A DNA stretch of 64,000 nucleotides from assembly GCA_964537215.1 (NCBI GenBank), contig CAZIBI010000002.1, positions 64,001 to 128,000 of the forward strand. Direction: 5' to 3'. Position 1 is the first letter of the stretch. Each line of letters opens with the position of its first letter. The notes beneath the pieces were generated by a model. The model searched no databases. It was not told the origin of the DNA and saw nothing but the letters and a program-made list of their open reading frames with translations. This DNA comes from an uncultured Ignavibacteria bacterium (lineage in GTDB: Bacteria; Zixibacteria; MSB-5A5; CAIYYT01). Positions 1,432 to 14,537 of the stretch are shown here, piece after piece. The position numbers were made by a program, and so were the translations under genes.

Positions 1432-3729
1432 ATGATTAGAAGGATCAAGAAGATTCGGAATTTGGGATTGGTGTTCTCGAATTACTCTGAGAAAGCTACA
1501 CTCCCAGCCTTCAAGAGATTTAATCTCATTTTCGGATGGAATGGATGTGGGAAGACAACTCTGTCTCGACTCTTCGGTTCGATAAGTGGGGTAGAAAGTT
1601 CGGGCGTGGAGTACCAGCTTGAGGACGATGGCGGTGTTGTTCATAAACATGGCGACCCGTTCCCAACAAAGATTCGTGTATTCAATCAAGATTTCATTCG
1701 TGAAAATCTAAGCTTGATCGAGAGTCGAGCAAAAACGATTTCTCTGATTCTCGGGAAGGAGAATCAGAGCCTATTGAAGCAAATCGAGAAGGACAGGCTG
1801 CTGCTTGAAGGTGACCCCACGAATGGCACGCAAGGCAAATTGTCATTGTTTGCAGCCAGTGAAAAAGAGGTCACACAAGCCGAAAGTGCACGAGCAAATA
1901 CATTCACCGAAGTCGCAAGAACAGTGGGCGCTGCGATCGGTGGTAATGCACTTCGAGATTACAGACGGCCGCAGGCGGAAAGTGATTTCAATGGCATGCC
2001 TGCCAAGGCCGAGCTAACCGCAGTAGAACTGGAAAAGCAATTATTATCAGTCAAACAGCTCTCACTGTCCGAGATTGCAACTCTCTCACTTCCTAAAGTG
2101 TCCTTGTCCGATAAACAAGTCCAACATGAATTGTCTAATTTAGCAGGATTGATCAGTTCAAAGTCCAAAGAACTCCAAAGTCGAACCGTAGATTCTGAGA
2201 TTGTCGAGCGTCTTACTTCGAATCCTGATATTTCGGAGTGGGTCGAAGCCGGGCTGATTTTGCACCAGAAGCACTCGTCAAATAAGTGCGAGTACTGCAT
2301 GCAGCAAGTACCAATAAAGCGATCTGAGGAACTTGCACGCCACTTTAATGAAGCGGACAGACGGTTGAAGGAAGAAGTACGGGAGTCAATATCCGACTTG
2401 ACCAGTTTGCGAGAAGTAGTTGGCTCACTACGAATTCCGGATAAAGCGCGATTCTATACTGCACTTCAGGTTGATTTCCAAGCGAAGGCCAGTGCTTTTG
2501 AACGAGAGAAGACAGCGGCAGTCCGAAGTATTGATTCTTGCACTGAAGAACTAGTTGAAAAACTGAAAAAGACAACTGAATCAGTGATTGCTAAAGAGAA
2601 ACTAGACCTTGAGTCCCTTACAACTACTATTGGTCAGATTAATCTGTCAATTGATGCTCACAATAAGATTACAAACGATTTTGATAGCGTAAGAAATGAA
2701 GCCATCAAGAAATTGAAACAACATTATCTAAGTACAATCTATGATGGTGTAAGACAGCTGGATGGCGAGATCGCGACCAAATCAACATCAAGGGATCAAC
2801 TCAAGGCAGAGATTGATACGTTGAAAGCGAGTATTACTGACAATTTGGCAAAAATGTCATCAACTCAAAAAGCATGTGAAGAAATCAATCAGCGCCTTCG
2901 GACATTCCTTGGACACAGCGAATTGAGTTTTGTCCCACATAACGAGCAACGGACGAAGGACGACGGAACGATGGAAGAAGTAACATCGGGATACGATATT
3001 ATGCGAGGGAACGATCCGGCCACACTGTTGAGCGAAGGCGAAAAGACAGCCGTGGCATTTGCCTATTTTGTCGTCCAGCTCGCTGATCAGGAATTTGATG
3101 TCAGCGAAGGGATCATCGTAATAGATGACCCAATCTCAAGTCTAGATTCAAATTCGTTGTACCAAGCTTTTAGTTTCTTGAAGAACGCGGTCAAGGAGAG
3201 CAAGCAGGTCTTCATACTCACGCACAACTTTGAATTTCTGAAGTTGTTAATTAACTGGCTAAAGGGCGCAAGGGCCGATGCTGGTTACTATATGATAAAG
3301 AATCGCTACCAGGATGGGGTACGAAGTGCATATATCGATGCGATGGATAAAGAACTCTTCGACTATGAATCTGAATATCACTACTTGTTCAAGCTCCTAA
3401 AGCAGCTCAGTCTCGATCAAGACGGCACGCTTGCCAAAGCATATCCAGTTCCGAATATTGCAAGAAAAGTCTGGGAGACATTCTTAATGTTCAGGGTTCC
3501 TAATAGTAAGTCCCAATACATGAAAATGGATGAGTTGAAAAAGGCGGGACTCGATGCAGTTAAGTTGGATTCGATATATAAGTTCACCAATGACCAGTCC
3601 CACATCACTGGATCCGGTTTGAACCCGGCATTGGTTCCACAAGCAACAAAAGTGATCAATGAGATGTTTGAGATGATGGCGGCGGGCGCCCCAGATCATT
3701 TTCGGATTCTTGATGATGCTACGAATTAG
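1432..3729 (+). CDS. AAA_13-family ABC-type ATPase with a coiled-coil insert and CxxC zinc hook. RloC/PrrC-like putative tRNA anticodon nuclease or abortive-infection ATPase.
   Basis: The N-terminus NLGLVFSNYSEK...FKRFNLIFGWNGCGKTTLSRLF carries the Walker A motif. IRVFNQDF is the Q-loop region. A long coiled coil contains HSSNKCEYCMQQV (CxxC). The ABC signature is LSEGEKTAVAFAYF, Walker B is IIVIDDPISSLD and the H-loop is FILTHNFEF. The C-terminal domain has ARKVWE (R-x3-E) followed 42 residues later by NDQSH. Confidence 0.8.
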   Translation: MIRRIKKIRNLGLVFSNYSEKATLPAFKRFNLIFGWNGCGKTTLSRLFGSISGVESSGVEYQLEDDGGVVHKHGDPFPTKIRVFNQDFIRENLSLIESRAKTISLILGKENQSLLKQIEKDRLLLEGDPTNGTQGKLSLFAASEKEVTQAESARANTFTEVARTVGAAIGGNALRDYRRPQAESDFNGMPAKAELTAVELEKQLLSVKQLSLSEIATLSLPKVSLSDKQVQHELSNLAGLISSKSKELQSRTVDSEIVERLTSNPDISEWVEAGLILHQKHSSNKCEYCMQQVPIKRSEELARHFNEADRRLKEEVRESISDLTSLREVVGSLRIPDKARFYTALQVDFQAKASAFEREKTAAVRSIDSCTEELVEKLKKTTESVIAKEKLDLESLTTTIGQINLSIDAHNKITNDFDSVRNEAIKKLKQHYLSTIYDGVRQLDGEIATKSTSRDQLKAEIDTLKASITDNLAKMSSTQKACEEINQRLRTFLGHSELSFVPHNEQRTKDDGTMEEVTSGYDIMRGNDPATLLSEGEKTAVAFAYFVVQLADQEFDVSEGIIVIDDPISSLDSNSLYQAFSFLKNAVKESKQVFILTHNFEFLKLLINWLKGARADAGYYMIKNRYQDGVRSAYIDAMDKELFDYESEYHYLFKLLKQLSLDQDGTLAKAYPVPNIARKVWETFLMFRVPNSKSQYMKMDELKKAGLDAVKLDSIYKFTNDQSHITGSGLNPALVPQATKVINEMFEMMAAGAPDHFRILDDATN

Positions 3730-3766: not shown

Positions 3767-3957
3767 GGTTATCCACAGGTAGTGAGGAATATCGCTACTT
3801 TTCGACAATTGATCATTTAGATAGACGAGCTACGATGACTTCACCGCTCAATCTGTCAGTCGCGATAATGCAACACCTTCAAGTGTTTGTTTGAACGTGG
3901 GTCGACCGGGGTTTAGCAGGTAAAAAGTTCGAACATCCTTCACCAGGGTGAACCAGC
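3767..3957. repeat. Direct repeat B. It overlaps the last ~110 bp of the serine recombinase coding sequence plus ~80 bp downstream of its stop codon.
   Basis: Alignable to 1040-1250 over ~195 bp at ~85% identity. Confidence 0.85.
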
Positions 3958-6297: not shown

Positions 6298-6551
6298 GCA
6301 CGAATCTCCCGATTCCATTCGTTCCGAAAAGTGCTGCAGATGCCCTGGCGCTCCAGATCGCGCAGTCGTTCGATGACGAAGAGCGATTGCCTATTTATCG
6401 GCGTGCGTGTGCCACTCATAATCAGAGTGTGGTGTATCGAGCTTATCGTGAGGCTCTACAGGTGCCGGCAGAGAAGGTGCGGAAATCGCGACGAGCCATT
6501 TTCTTCTTCATCCTGCACACCTATGAAGACGAAAATAGTGCTCGGCATTGA
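6294..6551 (+). CDS. Small hypothetical protein (85 aa), translationally coupled to the HTH and RuvC-like genes.
   Basis: ORF overlaps both neighbours (ATGA overlap upstream, ~29-bp overlap downstream). No recognisable motif. Confidence 0.4.
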   Translation: MSTNLPIPFVPKSAADALALQIAQSFDDEERLPIYRRACATHNQSVVYRAYREALQVPAEKVRKSRRAIFFFILHTYEDENSARH

Positions 6552-7047
6552 CTATGGTACGCGTGAATTTGGCTACGCCACTTTCCACGATGGCCGACTG
6601 CAGGATTGGAATGTCAAGTCGTTGCGCCGGACATTACCTCGACGAGATCGACTCATTGTCCTCCGACACGCATTCACAAGATTATTAATTGATACCCAGC
6701 CAGGGGTGATGGCAATGACAAGACACGAAACTGCCCACAACGACAAGCTGCAGATTATGCCAAAAGTCGACAGGATTATGAAATCCATCGCTGCCGAGCG
6801 CAGCATAGCAATTCATCAGTTTGACCCGGTGACTGTCAAGAAAGCTGTTACCGGCGACTCCAAAGCGACGAAGCGTATGGAAGCCAAGGGGGTTGTCGCA
6901 CTCTTTCCGGAAGTCCGGCTGTATCTCAACGAGGCAGGCTGGCAAGAGCGCTACTTGCAGAGAATGTTCGGGGCGATTGCTGCCGGATCCACCTATTTCG
7001 CTCTCTTCGAGAACCCGCCAGACCATGAGCAACCTAACCAACAGTAA
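6523..7047 (+). CDS. RuvC-like (RNase H-fold) Holliday-junction resolvase family protein.
   Basis: KIVLGIDYGTREFGYATFHDGRLQ resembles the RuvC N-terminus ILGIDPGSRVTGYGV. LIDTQPGVMAMTRHE resembles the FQPDYFAIEQVF segment carrying the catalytic Glu. AVTGDSKATKRMEAKGVVALF resembles [20 protein letters not shown]. The C-terminal acidic pair is not clearly conserved. Confidence 0.5.
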   Translation: MKTKIVLGIDYGTREFGYATFHDGRLQDWNVKSLRRTLPRRDRLIVLRHAFTRLLIDTQPGVMAMTRHETAHNDKLQIMPKVDRIMKSIAAERSIAIHQFDPVTVKKAVTGDSKATKRMEAKGVVALFPEVRLYLNEAGWQERYLQRMFGAIAAGSTYFALFENPPDHEQPNQQ

Positions 7048-8023
7048 GCGGACGCGGACAACACGGCGGCCGGTTGCAATTACGATTCGCGATCGGGCAA
7101 TGCTACTTGCACTAATTGAATTTCGCGTGCTTTCGACAGAGCAGATTCGTTGGTTGTTCTTTCCTTCAATCCATCGCACGCGGAAACGACTGTACTTGCT
7201 GTGGCGCCACGGTTTCCTTCGACGAGCTACTCGCCCGACCCGAATTGGGGAAGGGTCGGCGCAATTCCTGTACGCGCTTTCGGCCAAAGGGCGGCGACTC
7301 GTTGGCGACCAGAGCCTGCGACTCCGGCCGCAGTTGACCGATCCAAAGAAATTCAGTGAACATAGCCAGCTTATCAACAACCTCCATATTTGTCTGTTGC
7401 TCGTCGAACGTGCCGCCGATGACTTTTCCGTCCGGCGGTGGGAGCAAGGCGCAAAGCTCAAAATGTTCGTCACGGCGATATCTGCGGCCATTTCAACGAC
7501 ATTGCCGATTATTCCAGATGCAATGTTTATCCTAACCTGCAGAGGCCGGGATTATTGTTTTTTCGCGGAAGTTGATCGCGGTCAAACCGACCTCAATCGA
7601 ATCGCAAGCAAATGCACCGGCTATTCATCGTTGTGGCGGCAGAAGTTACCACAACGTCAATTTGGCGTCCGGTCGTTTCGTGTACTTTACCTGACAACTG
7701 GCGGAAAGCGGCTTGTCCATATCCTCGAAAAGATCCGGGTGCAACTACGAAACTCTTCTTGCCCGGACTTGATCGCCGGTGTGAGCGGTAATGCCGTTTC
7801 GCTCCAAGAACCTGAAAGGCTCTTTTCGATGGCATGGCGGACAGTTGCCCTTTCAGGAGACATTGTTTCGAGCTGTCCGCTGCCAAGCCCTTCCTTTGTC
7901 CGCTCCCGCCAGCGCCTTGAACACCACTTGTGCGCTGACCAGAATCCTGATGCTAGCTGTAAGGAGACTCCGGGCTCGGTGGATGAGGGCAGCCCTCGTC
8001 TGCCGGGTAGCGGGAGCGGATAG
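7025..8023 (+). CDS. Replication-relaxation (Replic_Relax, PF13814-like) family protein, paralog 1.
   Basis: RDRAMLLALIEFRVLSTEQIRWLFFPSIHRTRKRLYLLWRHGFLRR is a typical winged-helix N-terminus of this family. The start overlaps the RuvC-like gene end. Chosen start is M45 of the listed ORF. Confidence 0.6.
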   Translation: MSNLTNSKRTRTTRRPVAITIRDRAMLLALIEFRVLSTEQIRWLFFPSIHRTRKRLYLLWRHGFLRRATRPTRIGEGSAQFLYALSAKGRRLVGDQSLRLRPQLTDPKKFSEHSQLINNLHICLLLVERAADDFSVRRWEQGAKLKMFVTAISAAISTTLPIIPDAMFILTCRGRDYCFFAEVDRGQTDLNRIASKCTGYSSLWRQKLPQRQFGVRSFRVLYLTTGGKRLVHILEKIRVQLRNSSCPDLIAGVSGNAVSLQEPERLFSMAWRTVALSGDIVSSCPLPSPSFVRSRQRLEHHLCADQNPDASCKETPGSVDEGSPRLPGSGSG

Positions 8024-8261
8024 GTGAAGATCGGATGGAAGTCTGTTTTTGTTTGTGGTGCCGTCGGCAACAAGTGCTATTCGACGGCCTGAATGCGCGC
8101 GTTCGTCGGTCGGCTGCGCTTCACGCCATGCTTCCGGTGGGGTCGTGGTTGGCAGGGAGTGCAAACCACGACGAAAAAGTAGCCGGGAAATAATCTCTAT
8201 TTCCCTTCTACTTTTTTCGGGGTGTAACCCCTTGTCCCACCTCCAGCATGTCGTTCGCTTT

Positions 8262-8510
8262 GCCTCCCGACTCCACCATTTTTCCCGAGTCCTTTCTTCC
8301 TGCGCTTGGCGTCATTATATTGTGGGTGCGCCAAGCGCTGGAGCTTGGAAAGGACTCGGCTTTGCCGGTCGGCTCGGAAGCCGACATCGCCGCCGCTTAG
8401 CTTTTTGGTGGGTGCGGCGGCTCGGCGTCGGTCGGCGGCCATCCAACGGAGTTGGTCGTTTTAGCGGAGCCGTTGTCTGGCCTTGACGAAAAATGGTGGA
8501 GTCGGGAGGC
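8262..8510. repeat. Nested inverted repeats (large imperfect palindrome/cruciform) in a GC-rich intergenic region.
   Basis: Outer perfect 23-bp inverted repeat: gcctcccgactccaccatttttc (~8262-8284) and gaaaaatggtggagtcgggaggc (~8488-8510). Inner 12-bp inverted repeat: ccgagtcctttc (~8285-8296) and gaaaggactcgg (~8348-8359). Innermost 10-bp inverted repeat: gcgcttggcg (~8302-8311) and cgccaagcgc (~8329-8338), with the AT-rich loop tcattatattgtgggtg. Two further hairpins lie inside: gtcggct-cgga-agccgac (~8368-8388) and gccgccgc...gcggcggc (~8390-8430). Confidence 0.8.
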
Positions 8511-8622
8511 ATCGCGTGGCTATCACCCCGCCGTTGCGGCGAGGTTCCCGCGCCCCCTGCTCGTTGCCGACCCGGGGCGCGGAGCCACGCGGCCTCCGAC
8601 GAACGCGCGCAGAGAAAGACAG

Positions 8623-9771
8623 ATGAGGGAAGAGGACAGTTTGAAAGACCTACCGCTAAAGAGAAAACTGAAGGCATTCCGACCGAACGGACGCGATCGT
8701 TCGATCCTGCAGTATGTCGCCGACTATCGGTTCATGAGCATTGAGTTGCTCGCGGCGTTGATCGTTGCGCCGCCGGTACCGGGACGCACGTATGGATTCA
8801 GCGAATCGGCGCTCCGGGCACGATGTCAAAAGCTTCGAGATAATGACTTTCTTAACTGGCAATTTTTGCATGACTTGCCTACAGGTCGGGGTTTGCATAC
8901 CGAGCGACCAGCGGTGTACTCCATTGGTCCGGCGGCGCTCGATCTCTTAGAAGAAGAATTCGGCTTCAGCCGCGAGCAACTCAAGCAGTCGCTCGAGAAG
9001 AACAAACTGAGCTCAATGTTTCTCCGCCATTTCCTGATGATCAGCAAGTTCCATGTTTGCTTGGAACTGGCGTGCCGTCAAACCGCCAACGGCGGTATTG
9101 ATGCCGGCGTCGCCGGAGATCTCTCCGGTATGACGGTTGAAATTGGCACTTGGCTACAGGACGGACTGGTTGACCGCGTTCGTGTTACAGTCGGCGACGT
9201 AGTCGAGACGATACCGGTGGTGCCGGATGCTGTTTTCAATCTGGTCATTCGCAAATCAGACGGCTCGGTTACGGTGAAACATTTTGCGCTCGAGGCGGAC
9301 AGGGGGACGATGCCGATGCGGAGCATTACGAAGAAAGCAACTGGCTATTGGCAGTACATCCGGCGGGGATTGCAAAAACGCCGATATACATACTATGGAG
9401 AACATGGCGCGGGACCGGAATTGCGGGTTGTCAATCCGAACTTGAAATGGGATGCGATTCCAAAGGGCGAGCAAGAGAACATTCTGCGATACGGGATCGA
9501 TGATCTAACAGTCTTATTTGTCACCCGTGGGGAATCGCCTGACGTGAAGTCCCTGAAGGAGAAGTCCCAGCTCACACGCAAGCGCCAGAGCAGTATCCTT
9601 GAGGCGGTAAGACGGGTAGAAGGTATCGATCCATCTTCCGACACGTTCGTCTTTTGTACTGAAGGATTGGATTTCGATGTAAAAAGCGCGGCAGCGTTAT
9701 TCGAATCGATTTGGCAATCGTGTCGTGAAGAGCCCCTCAGATCGAAGTTGATACCAACCCGTGCGGAGTGA
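8623..9771 (+). CDS. Replication-relaxation (Replic_Relax-like) family protein, paralog 2.
   Basis: RDRSILQYVADYRFMSIELLAALIV...FLNWQFLH parallels the N-terminus of paralog 1. The listed ORF starts at 8452 inside the palindrome, so the internal Met (MREEDSLKDL) is chosen as start. Confidence 0.55.
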   Translation: MREEDSLKDLPLKRKLKAFRPNGRDRSILQYVADYRFMSIELLAALIVAPPVPGRTYGFSESALRARCQKLRDNDFLNWQFLHDLPTGRGLHTERPAVYSIGPAALDLLEEEFGFSREQLKQSLEKNKLSSMFLRHFLMISKFHVCLELACRQTANGGIDAGVAGDLSGMTVEIGTWLQDGLVDRVRVTVGDVVETIPVVPDAVFNLVIRKSDGSVTVKHFALEADRGTMPMRSITKKATGYWQYIRRGLQKRRYTYYGEHGAGPELRVVNPNLKWDAIPKGEQENILRYGIDDLTVLFVTRGESPDVKSLKEKSQLTRKRQSSILEAVRRVEGIDPSSDTFVFCTEGLDFDVKSAAALFESIWQSCREEPLRSKLIPTRAE

Positions 9772-9858
9772 TCTCAAGTCATCCAAACCCGGTCGCAAAT
9801 TTTTGTGAAAACAATCACGTGAATCCTAAAAAAAATTGACAACATTTGTCGATTCTTC

Positions 9859-9887
9859 TTGCTTTTCTTGGAAACTGGGATTATCAT
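9859..9887 (+). promoter_or_regulatory. Candidate sigma70-like promoter (ttgctt -35, 17 nt spacer, tatcat -10).
   Basis: Sequence inspection only. It lies in a 0.75 kb ORF-free region. A second candidate (ttgaca at 10082-10087, taatta -10) follows the terminator. Confidence 0.25.
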
Positions 9888-9894
9888 CGCATAC

Positions 9895-10072
9895 GTGGTA
9901 ACCGGCACTAGCTCAGAGCTCAAATCGGCGCGTTCGTTGCGCCCCGAGGAGGGTTGATCTGGTGTTCAGAGGAGATTAACCACAAACAGAGGAGGAATTA
10001 CGATCCTCTCTAGCGCTTTTCGCTCATTATTACTTTGATTGGTCGCGGCCGGGAAACTGGCCGCTTTTTTTA
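9895..10072 (+). ncRNA. Candidate small transcript (~180 nt) running from the promoter-like element to an intrinsic terminator. Function unknown.
   Basis: No ORF is listed in 9772-10519. The terminator at 10045-10072 is clear. Internal complementarity exists (gaggagg...cctctc). Confidence 0.2.
10045..10072 (+). terminator. Rho-independent terminator.
   Basis: gcggccgg-gaaa-ctggccgc stem followed by ttttttt. Confidence 0.65.
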
Positions 10073-10223
10073 TGAAATGTCTTGACAAGACCGTCAATCC
10101 AACGCTAATTAAAGCAACCAATCAAAGTAATCTCGTGGATTTCCCACACATCCTTTAAGTATGTCCAATTGTTACGCGCGGTTTTCATGCTTTCCGTGTG
10201 CGGTTTTGAAGAAAACCATCCAT

Positions 10224-10274
10224 AAAAAAGCACCCCGACTAGAGAATGCTTTGCACACAAGGCTCCAGTCGGGG
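10224..10274 (-). terminator. Possible minus-strand intrinsic terminator.
   Basis: The hairpin ccccgact ...(27 nt)... agtcgggg is followed by a T-run on the minus strand (the plus strand has aaaaaag upstream). The large loop makes this uncertain. Confidence 0.3.
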
Positions 10275-10655
10275 CTCACAGCAGAACGCTGCTTAATCGG
10301 TTAAGATAGCTGTTTTATTTTTCATGTCCACATGAATTTTAGAACAGGCTGTTTTTGCCGTCAAGCCTGCCGATCTGCGCTTCGTCCACCAAATAGGGCG
10401 AGGCATTCCTCAGTGACACAGCATCCATAGGAGTCAGCAATGCTTCGCTGCAATATGGATATCTATATCGAGGCCGCAATTCCGCTAATCGAAGCTGCAA
10501 TTGTGGTGGTGCCGTCGGATTGGACTGCTTTAGGTCCAGCGAAGGTCGCGTTCTGTTGCTTGTTGACGATCTACATCTTGTCTCGCCGCCGTCAACAGTA
10601 GCAGTTGTCCATCGATTTCTGAATTTGAAACGGATAATTTTGGAGGAAATAACAA

Positions 10656-11315: not shown

Positions 11316-11650
11316 CGCCGTTTTGTATTGGCGTGGATCGCAACACAGGACGCAGCGTAACGCTGCGTCCAGATGTTCTCTTCGCGCACGGCTTGATAGC
11401 GGGCGGAACAGGCATGGGGAAGAGCCAGCTTGCAAACGCTCTCTGCCGCCATTGTCTGCACGCGGGCATTCCGTTTGTCTATCTTGATCCTCATGGCGAC
11501 ACCTACCACGACCTTGTTGCCTATGCCACTGCCCGTCGGGTCCAGAACCGCCTTGTGACGATTGACGCCAATCTGGCGGCGGATACGTTTGTATTTCCAC
11601 TAAATTTCTGCTGCCGAATGGCTTGGATTCGGCAACGCAGGGAGCGATGA
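11312..11650 (+). CDS. N-terminal fragment (Walker A part) of an FtsK/HerA/TraD-like P-loop ATPase (type IV coupling-protein-like). It is split from the next ORF by an apparent frameshift.
   Basis: GGTGMGKSQLANAL carries the Walker A motif, followed by FVYLDPHGD. The frame ends at 11650 while the next frame opens at ~11604. Confidence 0.5.
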   Translation: MTPFCIGVDRNTGRSVTLRPDVLFAHGLIAGGTGMGKSQLANALCRHCLHAGIPFVYLDPHGDTYHDLVAYATARRVQNRLVTIDANLAADTFVFPLNFCCRMAWIRQRRER

Positions 11651-13092
11651 TCATGAAAGCAATGGCAAAAGTATTTGGCGAACAGGACGCGGAAACGAAG
11701 CCGCGTCTCGAACGCCGTGGGCGGGACACGTTCATTGCCTTGATCGAAGCAGGATTGACGCTTGCCGAAATGCTCGACTTCCTCTCCATCGATGACGATC
11801 GTTTTCGTAAGCACGTGCTTGGCCGAGTTTCGAATCCGTATGTTCGCGCTGAGTGGCAGGAATTTGACTCCATTGCAAGGCGATCAGACCGCGAAGCAAT
11901 GCTCGAGTCGACACTCAATCGCGCCGCCAAAGTCATTCTCAGTGATGCAATCCGACGCGTCTTTGGGACAGCAACGAATAATCTCGATTGGGAGAAAGTT
12001 CGGCGCGAGAATTTGGCGGTAGTTGTCAATCTCCAGCCGCAAAAAGTTGCAAGAGAAGCCCAGCAACTGCTCGGTACAATGCTGCTAGATCACTTGGCGA
12101 ACTACGCCATGCAGCAGACGAAAAGGGAGAATAAGATGTTTGTCATCGCTGACGAAATGGACGAATTGGCTAGTCCCGACTTCGCCTTGATGTTCCAAGC
12201 GTTTCGAAAGCGAGGCATTTTCTGCTGGCCGCTACTGCAGTATTTACAGCAACTGCGTTCGCGTGACGAGTCAAATCGTCTCTACGCGGCCGCAATGACG
12301 TGTTCGGACGTCAAGGTCGTCTTCCGTACATCGTACGAGGATGCGGCGCTTCTGGCGCGCGAACTTTTTCCCGGAGCATTCCGGGGCGACATTGTTAAGG
12401 ACGAGTTATTTCGGACACTGCTTTTGCCTAAGGAGTCGCAGCGTACTGTCGTTGGCTCGTCGGAAAGCGAAAGTGAATCGACGAGTGAGAGTGAGAGCGT
12501 TTCCGAGTTCGAAGGCACCGGCGTTGGCAGCACCAATGTCGACGGTATCGCCAGCGCCGAAGGTCAGACTTTCGGCGGTATGTACGGTGACGTTCTGCAA
12601 TCGTCCGAGCTATCAAGCCTGAACAGTGTTTCCGGTGCCTCCTCCTCATCGATGTCAGGTTCGACTCGATCTTCTTCAACCACCCGCAGTCATTCACGCG
12701 GCCACTCCCGGTCCAAGGCAGTTGTTCCGTTCTATGAATATGAACACGCCAAAGAGTTGGGTGGACGGCAGTATTTCAGTGTCGAAGAGGAATTGGAAAA
12801 GCGAATCTATGCTATCCAAAGCCAGGTGCGGCGCGAAGCGATCCTGAAAGTAGGAAACGCACCGGCAATTCACATTCTCACAACGTTCATCAAGCCGGTG
12901 CGCATTCGACCGCAGGATCTGCAGAGAACATTCGACCTGCTCGCGCGGAAATATGCACTGCCGGTTGAAGTCGTCGATGCCGCGATTGCGGAACGTCGGC
13001 GGCTTGCAGTTTCGACATCGGCGGGTGATATCGGCGTCGACAACAAGCAGATTGTCGCCTATCTCTTCAAACCGCAAAGGAGGAAACGATGA
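11623..13092 (+). CDS. C-terminal part of the FtsK/HerA/TraD-like ATPase (Walker B region) with a Ser/Glu-rich low-complexity tail.
   Basis: MFVIADEMDELAS is the Walker B DExx motif. The low-complexity segment SSESESESTSESESVSE...SSSSMSGSTRSSSTTRSHSRGHSRSK follows. Confidence 0.55.
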   Translation: MDSATQGAMIMKAMAKVFGEQDAETKPRLERRGRDTFIALIEAGLTLAEMLDFLSIDDDRFRKHVLGRVSNPYVRAEWQEFDSIARRSDREAMLESTLNRAAKVILSDAIRRVFGTATNNLDWEKVRRENLAVVVNLQPQKVAREAQQLLGTMLLDHLANYAMQQTKRENKMFVIADEMDELASPDFALMFQAFRKRGIFCWPLLQYLQQLRSRDESNRLYAAAMTCSDVKVVFRTSYEDAALLARELFPGAFRGDIVKDELFRTLLLPKESQRTVVGSSESESESTSESESVSEFEGTGVGSTNVDGIASAEGQTFGGMYGDVLQSSELSSLNSVSGASSSSMSGSTRSSSTTRSHSRGHSRSKAVVPFYEYEHAKELGGRQYFSVEEELEKRIYAIQSQVRREAILKVGNAPAIHILTTFIKPVRIRPQDLQRTFDLLARKYALPVEVVDAAIAERRRLAVSTSAGDIGVDNKQIVAYLFKPQRRKR

Positions 13093-13277: not shown

Positions 13278-13349
13278 TGCGTTTTGGACGACGCCGGTCG
13301 GAATATCATTGCTGACCGGCGTTTTTTTGTGCTTATTGGCAAGAATTGG

Positions 13350-14465
13350 ATGGAAACTATGGCAGTCATCAAGCGCGGAAATACTTGGTACATTGACTAC
13401 TACAGCGGCGGCAGGCGCTTCCGGGAGGCCATCGGCTCCAACCGGAAAATGGCCGAGCGCGTGTTGGCGAAGCGGCAAGTTGAAATCGCCGAAGGCCGCT
13501 TCCTCGACGTCAAGAAGCAGTCAACGGCGACGTTTGACGACATCGCGAAATCGTTCATGGAGTACTCGCACAGTAACAAATTGTCCTTCGAGCGCGACGA
13601 ACGCTGCATCAAGCTGCTGCGCGAACACTTCGGCGGCAAGATACTCGACGAGATTACGCCACTGGAAATCGAGAAGTACAAGTCGGCGCGCCGGAAGATT
13701 GTCGGACCGGCCACCGTCAACAAGGAACTCGCATGTTTCAAGACGATGTTCTCCAAAGCGGTCATCTGGGGTTTGGCGAATCAAAATCCGGTGAAGAAAG
13801 TTTCGATGTTTCGCGAGCCGCCCGGCAGGGTGCGATTTCTTTCTCGCGAAGAAATTAGACGCTTACTGAGCGAGGCGGCCGATCACATTCGACCAATCAT
13901 CATCGTCGCGTTGTTCACCGGTATGCGGAAGAGCGAAATCCTCAAATTGACATGGAAAGACATCGACTTCAACCTACGGCTCATCTATGTTCGCAACTCC
14001 AAGAATAACTCGGCCCGCGAAATACCAATGGCCAGGGAAGTCGTCACCGCACTGCAATCCATACCGGTGTCGAAAGGTCGAGTCTTCACCAGCAGCGACG
14101 ACCGGCCGGTTTCGAGCATTCGCACAGGATTTGATAACGCTGTCAAGCGAGCGCAGATTTCGGATTTTTCATTTCACGATATCAGACATACTTTTGCGTC
14201 GTACCTTGTGATGAACGGTGTTGAATTGTTTACCGTGAAGGAACTACTCGGTCACAAATCGATTTCGATGACGACAAGGTATTCCCATTTGAGTCCGGCG
14301 CATAAAGGGCGCGCCGTTGAGACGCTCGATTTTCTGGGTAGTCACAAATTGGTCACAAACAGTGACACCAAGGTTGCGCAAGACAAGCTAAATCGTTATC
14401 GTTCAACAATTGCCGGAGTGGCGAAATTGGTAGACGCAAGGGACTTAAAATCCCTCGTGTGGTGA
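13350..14465 (+). CDS. Tyrosine site-specific integrase (phage-integrase family).
   Basis: The arm-binding-like N-terminus is VIKRGNTWYIDYYSGGRRFRE. The catalytic region is ...FHDIRHTFASYLVMNGVELFTVKELLGHKSISMTTRYSHL (R...HxxR...Y). The C-terminal ~18 codons are encoded by the 5' half of tRNA-Leu. Confidence 0.9.
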   Translation: METMAVIKRGNTWYIDYYSGGRRFREAIGSNRKMAERVLAKRQVEIAEGRFLDVKKQSTATFDDIAKSFMEYSHSNKLSFERDERCIKLLREHFGGKILDEITPLEIEKYKSARRKIVGPATVNKELACFKTMFSKAVIWGLANQNPVKKVSMFREPPGRVRFLSREEIRRLLSEAADHIRPIIIVALFTGMRKSEILKLTWKDIDFNLRLIYVRNSKNNSAREIPMAREVVTALQSIPVSKGRVFTSSDDRPVSSIRTGFDNAVKRAQISDFSFHDIRHTFASYLVMNGVELFTVKELLGHKSISMTTRYSHLSPAHKGRAVETLDFLGSHKLVTNSDTKVAQDKLNRYRSTIAGVAKLVDARDLKSLVW

Positions 14466-14497
14466 CACACGTACCGGTTCGATTCCGGTCTCCGGCA
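14412..14497 (+). tRNA. tRNA-Leu (anticodon UAA), type II with a long variable arm. No encoded CCA.
   Basis: Manual fold: acceptor GCCGGAG/CTCCGGC. D-arm GCG-AAATTGGTAGA-CGC. Anticodon arm AGGGA-CTTAAAA-TCCCT. Variable arm GTGTG-gtga-CACAC. T-arm ACCGG-TTCGATT-CCGGT. Discriminator A. Confidence 0.9.
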
Positions 14498-14537
14498 TAT
14501 TGTAAATGGGACAAATCTAGATTGCTGAATTGGGAGA

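Follow-up and report, generated by a model that had tools for sequence, protein, structure and literature searches.

In a window of 64,000 nt from an uncultured Ignavibacteria bacterium (assembly GCA_964537215.1, contig CAZIBI010000002.1, positions 64,001 to 128,000 of the forward strand), we identified a conserved element of 520-555 nt that lies between two genes of the Replic_Relax family, here termed RR1 and RR2. The element is predicted to fold into about 25 helices, and its base pairs are maintained among relatives by compensatory changes. It has no match in Rfam or in the plasmid and phage DNA collections searched. Judging from its sequence and its genetic surroundings, we propose that it acts, as folded single-stranded DNA, as an oriT-type (origin-of-transfer) processing site of a mobilizable element integrated at a tRNA-Leu gene, and about half of our confidence rests with this reading. 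All coordinates given below without a locus number refer to the window.

A first-pass annotation of this DNA had described three nested perfect inverted repeats of 23, 12 and 10 bp, forming a palindrome of ~250 bp. All three repeats were found exactly where they had been placed, and the further GC hairpins, of which at least two had been mentioned, are present as well (Table 1). The 23-bp repeat, GCCTCCCGACTCCACCATTTTTC and its complement, can be extended to 29 nt at 93% complementarity (8256-8284/8488-8516), and the 10-bp repeat to 14 nt at 93%. Copies of the 23-mer occur in the 64-kb window at these two places only, with 0 matches in 100 shuffles. Folding of both strands as single-stranded DNA, which the annotation had suggested, yielded strong structures: using DNA parameters, positions 8250-8520 gave -96.1 kcal/mol for the + strand and -92.4 kcal/mol for the - strand, compared to shuffle means of -49 and -45, respectively (z about -12 for each strand). 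Using RNA parameters, the stretch 8024-8630 gave -345.9 kcal/mol (z -18) for the + strand and -336.6 kcal/mol (z -13) for the - strand.

The palindrome thus described is real; however, it represents only the central domain of the 520-555-nt conserved element, and the three reported repeats are three of the ~25 helices. A perfect 16-bp inverted repeat (8094-8109/8596-8611) with a spacer of 486 nt surrounds all three reported repeats and closes a structure of 518 nt. In the predicted fold, the stretch 8057-8611 is organized into ~25 helices in three domains, with z values of -12 to -18 on both strands. For the + strand, the minimum free energy (MFE) fold between the arms of the closing stem P1 comprises 198 pairs over 518 nt, and approximately three-quarters of the bases are paired. 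As a side observation, a T/G-rich tract ahead of the upstream hairpin P0 (8036-8056, TCTGTTTTTGTTTG) pairs in the MFE fold with the purine-rich ribosome-binding region of RR2 (AGAGAAAGACAG, within 8612-8622). The corresponding tract upstream of P1 is A/G-rich in the short family of relatives described below, unlike that of the window.

Relatives were gathered by protein searches with RR1 and RR2, contig look-ups and scans of sequence collections, and are referred to by locus numbers (L). In L004-L010, the intergenic region is 95.6-96.9% identical to that of the window, which equals the best-conserved coding stretches, and parts of RR1 and RR2 are down to 67-85% identity. By means of an nhmmer profile, the element was found in six more lineages (L011, L013, L014, L018, L044 and L045), whose RR2 proteins are 43-54% identical. 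Throughout this long family, the element is located directly upstream of RR2 in every lineage with RR2 on the contig. In most members the P1 stem ends ~10-25 nt before the RR2 start, as read from the alignment ends; in L011 and L014, the called RR2 start is located further downstream of the closing stem. The position between two Replic_Relax paralogues, which had been pointed out earlier, holds for the window but is not a conserved context: cargo separates RR1 from the element in L011 (a TIR-domain gene) and in L014 (four genes), and no RR1 occurs within 6 kb of the element in L044.

A short family with a 390-nt version of the element was found in L021, L024 and L032, near Replic_Relax (RR) genes whose products are 25-33% identical. 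The plan is the same, comprising P1, a left domain, a central domain closed by P3 and a right domain; P1 has 20 bp (GGCGCGCATTCGTCGGGGCT), and the central domain is closed by CCCCCGACTACCCCCG/CGGGGGTAGTCGGGGG. The gene order in L032 is element, open reading frame (orf), VirD4-like coupling protein, RR and an ArdC-like gene, and that in L021 is coupling protein, RPA-type replication initiator, element and RR. Among the loci at 25-33% identity, L021 alone displayed a strong fold when the 600 nt ahead of the RR gene were examined. In L024 and L032, a motif search located the element ~2 kb upstream of the RR gene, ahead of an orf and the coupling-protein gene. The orientation of the element relative to the RR gene is the same in both families. 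Since RR1 is absent or displaced in relatives, and given the gene orders in L032 and L021, we concluded that it is not the two paralogues that constantly accompany the element but an RR2-type gene together with a VirD4-like coupling protein.

The conservation of the fold was analysed on an alignment of 11 sequences from seven long-family lineages, from which a consensus structure was obtained using RNAalifold. Double compensatory changes were observed in 54 of the 138 consensus pairs, compared to 8-18 in controls in which the partners were slid by 1-3 columns. Likewise, 95.1% of the cells were paired, compared to 38-43% in the slid controls, and none of 500 shuffles reached any of five covariation measures. 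Where cells differed, the change affected both sides in 118 cases and one side in 15, and many of the double changes are transversions. In P0, CCGTCG/CGACGG of the window is replaced by CCATCG/CGATGG in L013 and by CCGCCG/CGGCGG in L045. P1, which is helix 2 of the consensus (19 pairs, 97% of cells paired), displays compensatory changes from G-C to T-A in L014 and from G-C to A-T in the short family. The enclosing stems of the left domain covary (helices 3 and 4); its pairing of an A-run with a T-run is retained in L011 and L013, where the distal stem is a different one. Covariation was further found in helices 5-12 of the central domain and helices 13-17 of the right domain. Among the arms of the central domain, L011 has GCCGCCCGACTGCCGTCAATT/AATTGACGGCAGTCGGGCGGC for P3 and also CCGACACCTTTC/GAAAGGTGTCGG, and P3a changes from CCGAGTCC/GGACTCGG to CCGACACC/GGTGTCGG. 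Based on these results, we concluded that the structure is real and under selection.

Covariation extends to short hairpins (5-8 bp), and spacers of 200-486 nt separate the arms of the long repeats. For these reasons, the constraint must act on a single-stranded fold and cannot stem from the binding of a dimeric protein to duplex DNA or from cruciform extrusion. The stems are, in addition, conserved in sequence. Identity in the 96%-identical relatives amounts to 98.5-99.3% for paired columns and 92-94% for unpaired columns; between the window and L011, the corresponding values are 81% and 54%. Essentially all invariant runs are located inside helices, namely TTCGTCGGT and CCGACGAA (the 5' and 3' arms of P1, each invariant in the 11 sequences), CCCGACT, CCGGTCG, CGCCGCC, GGCTCGG and AGTCGGG.

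The stretch 8024-8622 had been regarded as non-coding by the first-pass annotation, with an open reading frame starting at 8452 as the feature that might contradict this. Sequence comparison confirmed that the stretch is non-coding. The 8452 frame was ruled out as coding by 1-nt indels that break it in 96%-identical relatives (an additional base in L005, one base less in L009 and L010, within 8452-8622). Moreover, this extension is absent from distant RR2 homologues, and the N-terminus of RR2 is conserved only from residue ~5-12 of the protein that starts at ATG 8623. Within the close family, neither a coding region in the orthologues nor a loss of the structure was encountered. Several public gene calls lie within the element or extend RR2 into it (L045 5474-6001; L005 7394-7735; L009 7705-7950 on the - strand; L004 1091-1249), and the N-terminal extensions of P0019, P0021 and P0022 likewise reach into it. 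The frame of these calls is not conserved among relatives, and they are probably artefacts of a GC-rich, stop-free stretch.

Compensatory changes are expected equally of folded single-stranded DNA and of RNA. A large structured RNA would either be the 5' leader of the RR2 mRNA (or of an mRNA for coupling protein and RR) or stand on its own as an ornate non-coding RNA belonging to the mobile element. Such an RNA would account for the strong structural conservation with its 54 covarying pairs, for a size within the range of large bacterial RNAs tied to mobile elements, and for the location of the closing stem shortly before the RR2 start in most long-family members. In L014, the genes upstream of the element are on the opposite strand, so that the promoter required by RR2 must be located at the element or immediately ahead of it, which also speaks for an RNA. 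The MFE folds of the long family also contain somewhat more G-U pairs on the + strand (11 versus 1 in the window). However, among the 1504 pair cells of the alignment, 1407 are Watson-Crick, 23 are G-U and 19 are A-C, with 0-3 G-U among 138 pairs in individual lineages and 0-2 in some. G-U is thus treated like any other mismatch, which is not expected of RNA. Comparison of the MFE of both strands in 12 lineages gave no consistent winner: the + strand was better in 5 and the antisense strand was equal or better in 7, and in the three short-family members the - strand was better by 7-30 kcal/mol. An assignment of the strand by wobble pairs or MFE was abandoned, as no consistent signal was obtained.

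Further results disagree with an RNA. Sequence conservation resides in the stems and not in the loops and junctions, which is opposite to most structured RNAs and suggests that proteins may read the hairpin duplexes. The conserved A5/T6 hairpin of the left domain, inside the element, resembles a terminator when either strand is scanned. A distance of ~2 kb, which includes an orf and the coupling-protein gene, separates the element from the RR gene in L024 and L032. The search for promoters revealed no conserved motif of the sigma-70-like or TAnnTTTG type, and Bacteroidota-type promoter motifs were not conserved, although the promoter rules of the host may differ. In the window, the sole Rfam match at gathering level is the tRNA, and at E values up to 10 merely chance matches to miRNA and snoRNA families, well under their cut-offs, were obtained; a known RNA family was therefore dismissed. 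Taken together, the wobble, strand and stem-conservation results, indirect as they are, appear to favour folded DNA over structured RNA, and we consider an RNA to be an unlikely explanation of the element.

The Pfam family Replic_Relax is the MOBC family of relaxases (PMC5357655, PMC12857230), and an origin of transfer is therefore the reading that suggests itself. Its fold is of the PD-(D/E)XK type (PMC3424549). In the MOBC prototype, TraX of plasmid pAD1, an N-terminal winged helix is present, five short direct repeats 70-120 bp from nic are bound, and no covalent intermediate was detected (PMC12857230). RR1 and RR2 share 30% identity over 123 residues (E 2e-10), and RR2 is presumed to be the cognate relaxase of the element; no solved structures related to RR2 were found. 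Among the roles that the first-pass annotation had offered (an origin of transfer, a replication origin or a structured RNA), we infer that a single-stranded DNA site of the oriT type fits best, and the RNA is the one disfavoured by the wobble and strand tests. An oriT-type site is best supported because the element is constantly linked to RR2 and to a coupling protein, taken with its repeated boxes and the MOBC family. In the window, RR2 starts 11 nt past the closing stem, and the adjacency to the MOBC gene holds in all long-family loci. The coupling protein is encoded in the same module, with weak matches in the window and better ones in L032 and L044.

GTCGG/CCGAC is the commonest 5-mer of the element, with 7-10 copies per element compared to 1.3-2.8 expected. 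The copies are dispersed within stems without forming a tandem array, and CGGTC[G/T]GC occurs three times in direct orientation. A GCCTCC(C)GAC box is present as a direct repeat in the 5' arm of P3 and at the 3' arm of P1a/P1. This box changes in parallel at both copies, to GCCGCC... in L011 and to CCCCGAC in the short family, which looks like the behaviour of a protein recognition site. Large inverted repeats are also present and conserved (P1, 16 bp; P3, 24 bp). For comparison, the main feature of oriT2 of pAD1 (~285 bp) is reportedly an inverted repeat of ~140 bp, within which nic is located (Francia and Clewell, 2002).

According to the proposed mechanism, RR2, possibly assisted by RR1, would bind after excision to the sequence-conserved stems, in which GTCGG/CCGAC boxes recur (P3 and P1, for example, contain GCCTCC(C)GAC). 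RR2 would then nick one strand, and the VirD4-like coupling protein would pass this strand to the mating channel of a helper. The hairpins would form once the DNA is single-stranded and would mark the site for termination and rejoining; they might also prime the complementary strand in the recipient.

Several observations weigh against an oriT-type site. The backbone of the carrier was found to contain no type IV secretion genes, so that transfer would require a helper from elsewhere. In size and complexity, the element far exceeds the oriTs described so far; those known to us are much smaller and have one to three repeats, and we know of no relaxase that requires a fold of 25 helices with many short hairpins. 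Twelve other Replic_Relax loci at 25-33% identity lack long-range inverted repeats like P1 and P3 within 2.5 kb in the DNA fetched, and such an element is also missing from the fetched DNA of L002, whose RR1 is 56% identical. In the long family, the element always abuts the RR2 start codon, which would also fit a 5' leader RNA. The wobble test covers seven long-family lineages in an imperfect alignment, and G-T pairs are mildly tolerated in single-stranded DNA, so that this test cannot name the strand. No similarity to a characterised oriT was found, as blastn (word size 11) with 8024-8630 gave no match in 72,556 plasmids or 50,697 phages.

No match to RR2 was obtained by tblastn against the plasmids. 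The short-family RR gave 3 weak matches in the plasmid search, among them one in S. aureus (24.8% identity, E 2e-4) located within a Tcp-type conjugation operon and one in Bradyrhizobium without a comparable upstream structure. In viral contigs, a protein scan detected no relatives, and a 15-mer DNA scan returned >120 matches, none of which was recognised by the nucleotide profile of the element.

Alternatively, the element might be a single-strand initiation element and not a nick site, i.e. a single-strand origin (sso) or ssi site, or an Frpo-like single-stranded DNA promoter that primes the complementary strand or drives early expression of RR2. Known sso function depends on structure rather than on sequence, and sso1 of ICEBs1 is located directly after the relaxase gene nicK (PMC4595007); Frpo elements are located just upstream of genes, and their fold mimics duplex DNA (PMC11541004). 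The extensive DNA-like fold would agree with such a role, as would the position immediately upstream of RR2 and the constant orientation to it in both families. However, no stem contains a correctly spaced -35/-10 pair: the invariant TTGACG (8483-8488) is without a -10 partner, and TTGAC[AG]-N16-18-TAnnnT was not found in or around the element in 10 lineages, the host not being a sigma-70-consensus organism. A CS-6-like TAGCGG (8463-8468) varies in the 96%-identical relatives (TAGCAG, TGGCTG) and is absent in distant ones. Known elements of this type have 50-350 nt, compared to 520 nt here; no strand asymmetry was detected; and the conserved stems, rich in a repeated pentamer, suggest a dedicated protein and not the host RNA polymerase. 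We therefore give a pure initiation role a low probability. The two roles could coexist, and single-strand initiation may be an additional function of parts of an oriT-type element.

Terminal inverted repeats of 23-29 bp at a distance of ~230-260 bp resemble a miniature inverted-repeat transposable element (MITE), and correction of quasi-palindromes by template switching can mimic compensatory change, but a selfish insertion or palindromes so kept, without function for the mobile element, are highly improbable given the single copy in the window (as judged by a nucleotide profile search, which led us to dismiss a repeat family), the invariably syntenic position, flanks without an obvious target-site duplication as read (no formal search was made), the nesting in a larger conserved structure and the retention at 25-54% protein identity.

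A more far-reaching possibility, which we regard as doubtful, is that the element is an ornate folded nucleic acid of a new class. It would then be among the largest conserved single-stranded DNA folds described and a multifunctional hub of a non-HUH, restriction-enzyme-like relaxase, or else a new 520-nt RNA partner of PD-(D/E)XK Replic_Relax proteins. In the case of a hub, a single fold would be read for nicking, for termination, for the priming of complementary-strand synthesis and perhaps for the processing of junctions by the co-encoded RuvC-like resolvase.

The features of the element and the genes of its carrier are listed in Table 1. The carrier is an element integrated at tRNA-Leu, in agreement with the integrative element considered at first pass, and it looks like an integrative mobilizable element. 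Homology with L007 ends exactly at 14498, the 3' end of the tRNA. The end of the tRNA gene is therefore provided by the carrier, whose right boundary is at 14498. No left-end repeat of the carrier was found inside the window. The backbone of the family consists of a serine recombinase, a helix-turn-helix (HTH) protein, an 85-aa orf, the RuvC-like gene, RR1, a gap of ~600 nt, RR2, small orfs, the VirD4-like ATPase, an HTH_17 protein and the tyrosine integrase. The candidate coupling protein (11623-13092) scores 21.9 bits with Pfam TraG-D_C, just under the cut-off of 22, and 25 bits with NCBIfam conju_CD1115 (E 7.7e-6), far under the cut-off of 250. Its orthologues match TrwB_AAD_bind, DUF87 and T4SS-DNA_transf; that of L032 matches T4SS-DNA_transf (1.5e-10) and TraG-D_C (8.7e-8), and that of L044 matches TrwB_AAD_bind.

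Table 1. Genes, domains and paired segments in and around the element (window coordinates).
Feature	Position	Strand	Remarks
RuvC-like resolvase gene	6331..7047	+	Pfam RuvC E 3.5e-7; NCBIfam ruvC weak
RR1, upstream Replic_Relax paralogue	7025..8023	+	332 aa; Pfam PF13814 E 5.5e-26; MOBC-type, PD-(D/E)XK
Whole conserved non-coding unit	8024..8622		599 nt, RR1 stop to RR2 start
P0, upstream hairpin	8057..8090		arms 8057-8066/8082-8090; conserved GTGCTATTCG in loop
P1, 5' arm	8094..8109		closing stem of whole structure; TGCGCGCGTTCGTCGG
P1a, 5' arm	8112..8118		partner 8588-8594
Left domain	8123..8254		enclosing stems 8123-8132/8245-8254 and 8136-8141/8236-8241
Left-domain hairpin 1	8142-8154/8160-8172		
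Left-domain hairpin 2	8173-8182/8208-8217 plus 8185-8192/8198-8205		A5/T6 hairpin
Left-domain hairpin 3	8219-8223/8227-8231		
Central domain	8256..8516		palindrome of the first-pass annotation; closed by P3
P3	8261-8284/8488-8511		24-bp stem
23-bp perfect inverted repeat	8262-8284/8488-8510		GCCTCCCGACTCCACCATTTTTC and its complement
P3a	8285-8297/8347-8359		enclosed by P3
12-bp perfect inverted repeat	8285-8296/8348-8359		
P3b	8298-8316/8325-8342		enclosed by P3
10-bp perfect inverted repeat	8302-8311/8329-8338		17-nt AT-rich loop tcattatattgtgggtg
P3c	8364-8367/8423-8426		enclosed by P3; carries the two additional GC hairpins
Additional GC hairpins	8368-8374/8379-8385 and 8389-8396/8414-8421		
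P3d	8431-8441/8478-8487 with 8444-8449/8470-8475		enclosed by P3
Right domain	8517..8587		stem 8517-8521/8583-8587; hairpins 8525-8533/8537-8545, 8548-8556/8574-8582
P1, 3' arm	8596..8611		CCGACGAACGCGCGCA; end 11 nt ahead of RR2 ATG
RR2, downstream Replic_Relax paralogue	8623..9771	+	382 aa; PF13814 E 5.8e-13, 49.8 bits vs 25.3 cut-off
VirD4/TraG-like coupling-protein candidate	11623..13092	+	weak matches
Tyrosine integrase ORF	13284-14465	+	overlaps tRNA-Leu(taa) 14411-14498 by 55 nt

The RuvC-like resolvase is conserved in the backbone, and the neighbouring element is predicted to contain several three- and four-way junctions. Its gene is located directly upstream of RR1, is syntenic in L001, L007, L009, L011, L013 and L014, and probably has its true start near 6523. 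A functional link between the resolvase and the predicted junctions is conceivable.

Two direct repeats of ~190 bp (1040-1229 and 3767-3955, 85% identical) flank a gene for an AAA_13 ATPase (1432-3729). L005 has one copy of the repeat and no AAA_13 gene. In the window, the AAA_13 gene thus has the appearance of cargo, or of a defence gene, that was inserted next to the serine recombinase gene at its 3' end. Variable defence-like cargo also occurs between RR1 and the element in other loci (L011 4878-5357; L014 2323-5313; L044 3362-4831) and includes TIR_2, HNH_2 and Big_5 genes. Cargo upstream of the recombinase, including that in L007 and L009, encodes SMODS, AbiEii, a PHP-SMC-type ATPase and AAA_13.

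A second non-coding gap (9772-10440) follows RR2 on its 3' side. It is more AT-rich and moderately structured (DNA fold z -4.6), with a P3-like box repeat (CCCCGACT, 10233-10240; AGTCGGGG, 10267-10274) and a small P1-like hairpin (GGCGCGTTCGTTGCGCC, 9925-9941). Comparable gaps of 370-1190 nt after RR2 occur in other loci. This gap was rejected as an alternative site, based on its modest structure and on the P3-like repeat, which is not conserved in relatives.

No relaxase family is understood as poorly as MOBC. Its members are restriction-enzyme-like, and biochemical work has been confined essentially to one prototype, TraX of pAD1. The conserved covarying structure described here provides a concrete candidate substrate for recognition, cutting and rejoining by MOBC proteins, and the invariant stems TTCGTCGG, CCCGACT and CCGGTCG, together with the co-varying box, are where binding or cleavage could be sought. 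If the element does act as single-stranded DNA, it would considerably widen the range of functional DNA structures, which so far includes attC sites and the hairpins of sso and Frpo. The element also marks a family of tRNA-Leu-integrated mobilizable elements with variable defence-type cargo (AAA_13, AbiEii, SMODS, TIR) in Ignavibacteria-type and other uncultured bacteria, and it flags several public gene calls as probably spurious.

The element shares features with several known systems. The inverted terminal repeats of adeno-associated virus and other parvoviruses likewise have an outer stem around smaller palindromes and a single-stranded DNA fold that is read by a site-specific nuclease. 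The element described here is internal and not terminal, far larger, and would be served by a PD-(D/E)XK and not an HUH protein, so that the resemblance is one of form only. Ornate non-coding RNAs (ROOL, GOLLD, HEARO/omega RNA) are similar in their size of ~500 nt, their multi-domain fold with strong covariation and their location in a mobile element near a tRNA gene. The element differs from these in that it has no Rfam match, nearly lacks G-U pairs, displays no strand asymmetry and has poorly conserved loops and junctions. With the sso elements (ssoA/ssoU of rolling-circle plasmids, sso1 of ICEBs1) and Frpo/ssi elements, it would share the property of DNA that works only as a folded single strand, and it shares conservation of structure above sequence and a position beside relaxase or leading-region genes (PMC4595007, PMC11541004). 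In contrast to these, it is two to four times larger, its stems are conserved in sequence, both strands fold equally well, and the CS-6/RS_B and -35/-10 signatures were not found. From oriT2 of the Enterococcus faecalis plasmid pAD1, the element differs by its ~520 nt with ~25 helices in three domains, compared to an oriT reported to have ~285 bp with one repeat of ~140 bp, and by its pentamers, which are located inside stems and not in a tandem array. Furthermore, its carrier is integrated in an uncultured Ignavibacteria-type host, whereas pAD1 is a Firmicute plasmid. Both are intergenic and adjoin the gene of a relaxase of the same family (Replic_Relax, PD-(D/E)XK, with an N-terminal winged helix), both are located near the gene of a TraG-like protein, and both combine a dominant large inverted repeat with short repeated motifs that are possibly binding sites.

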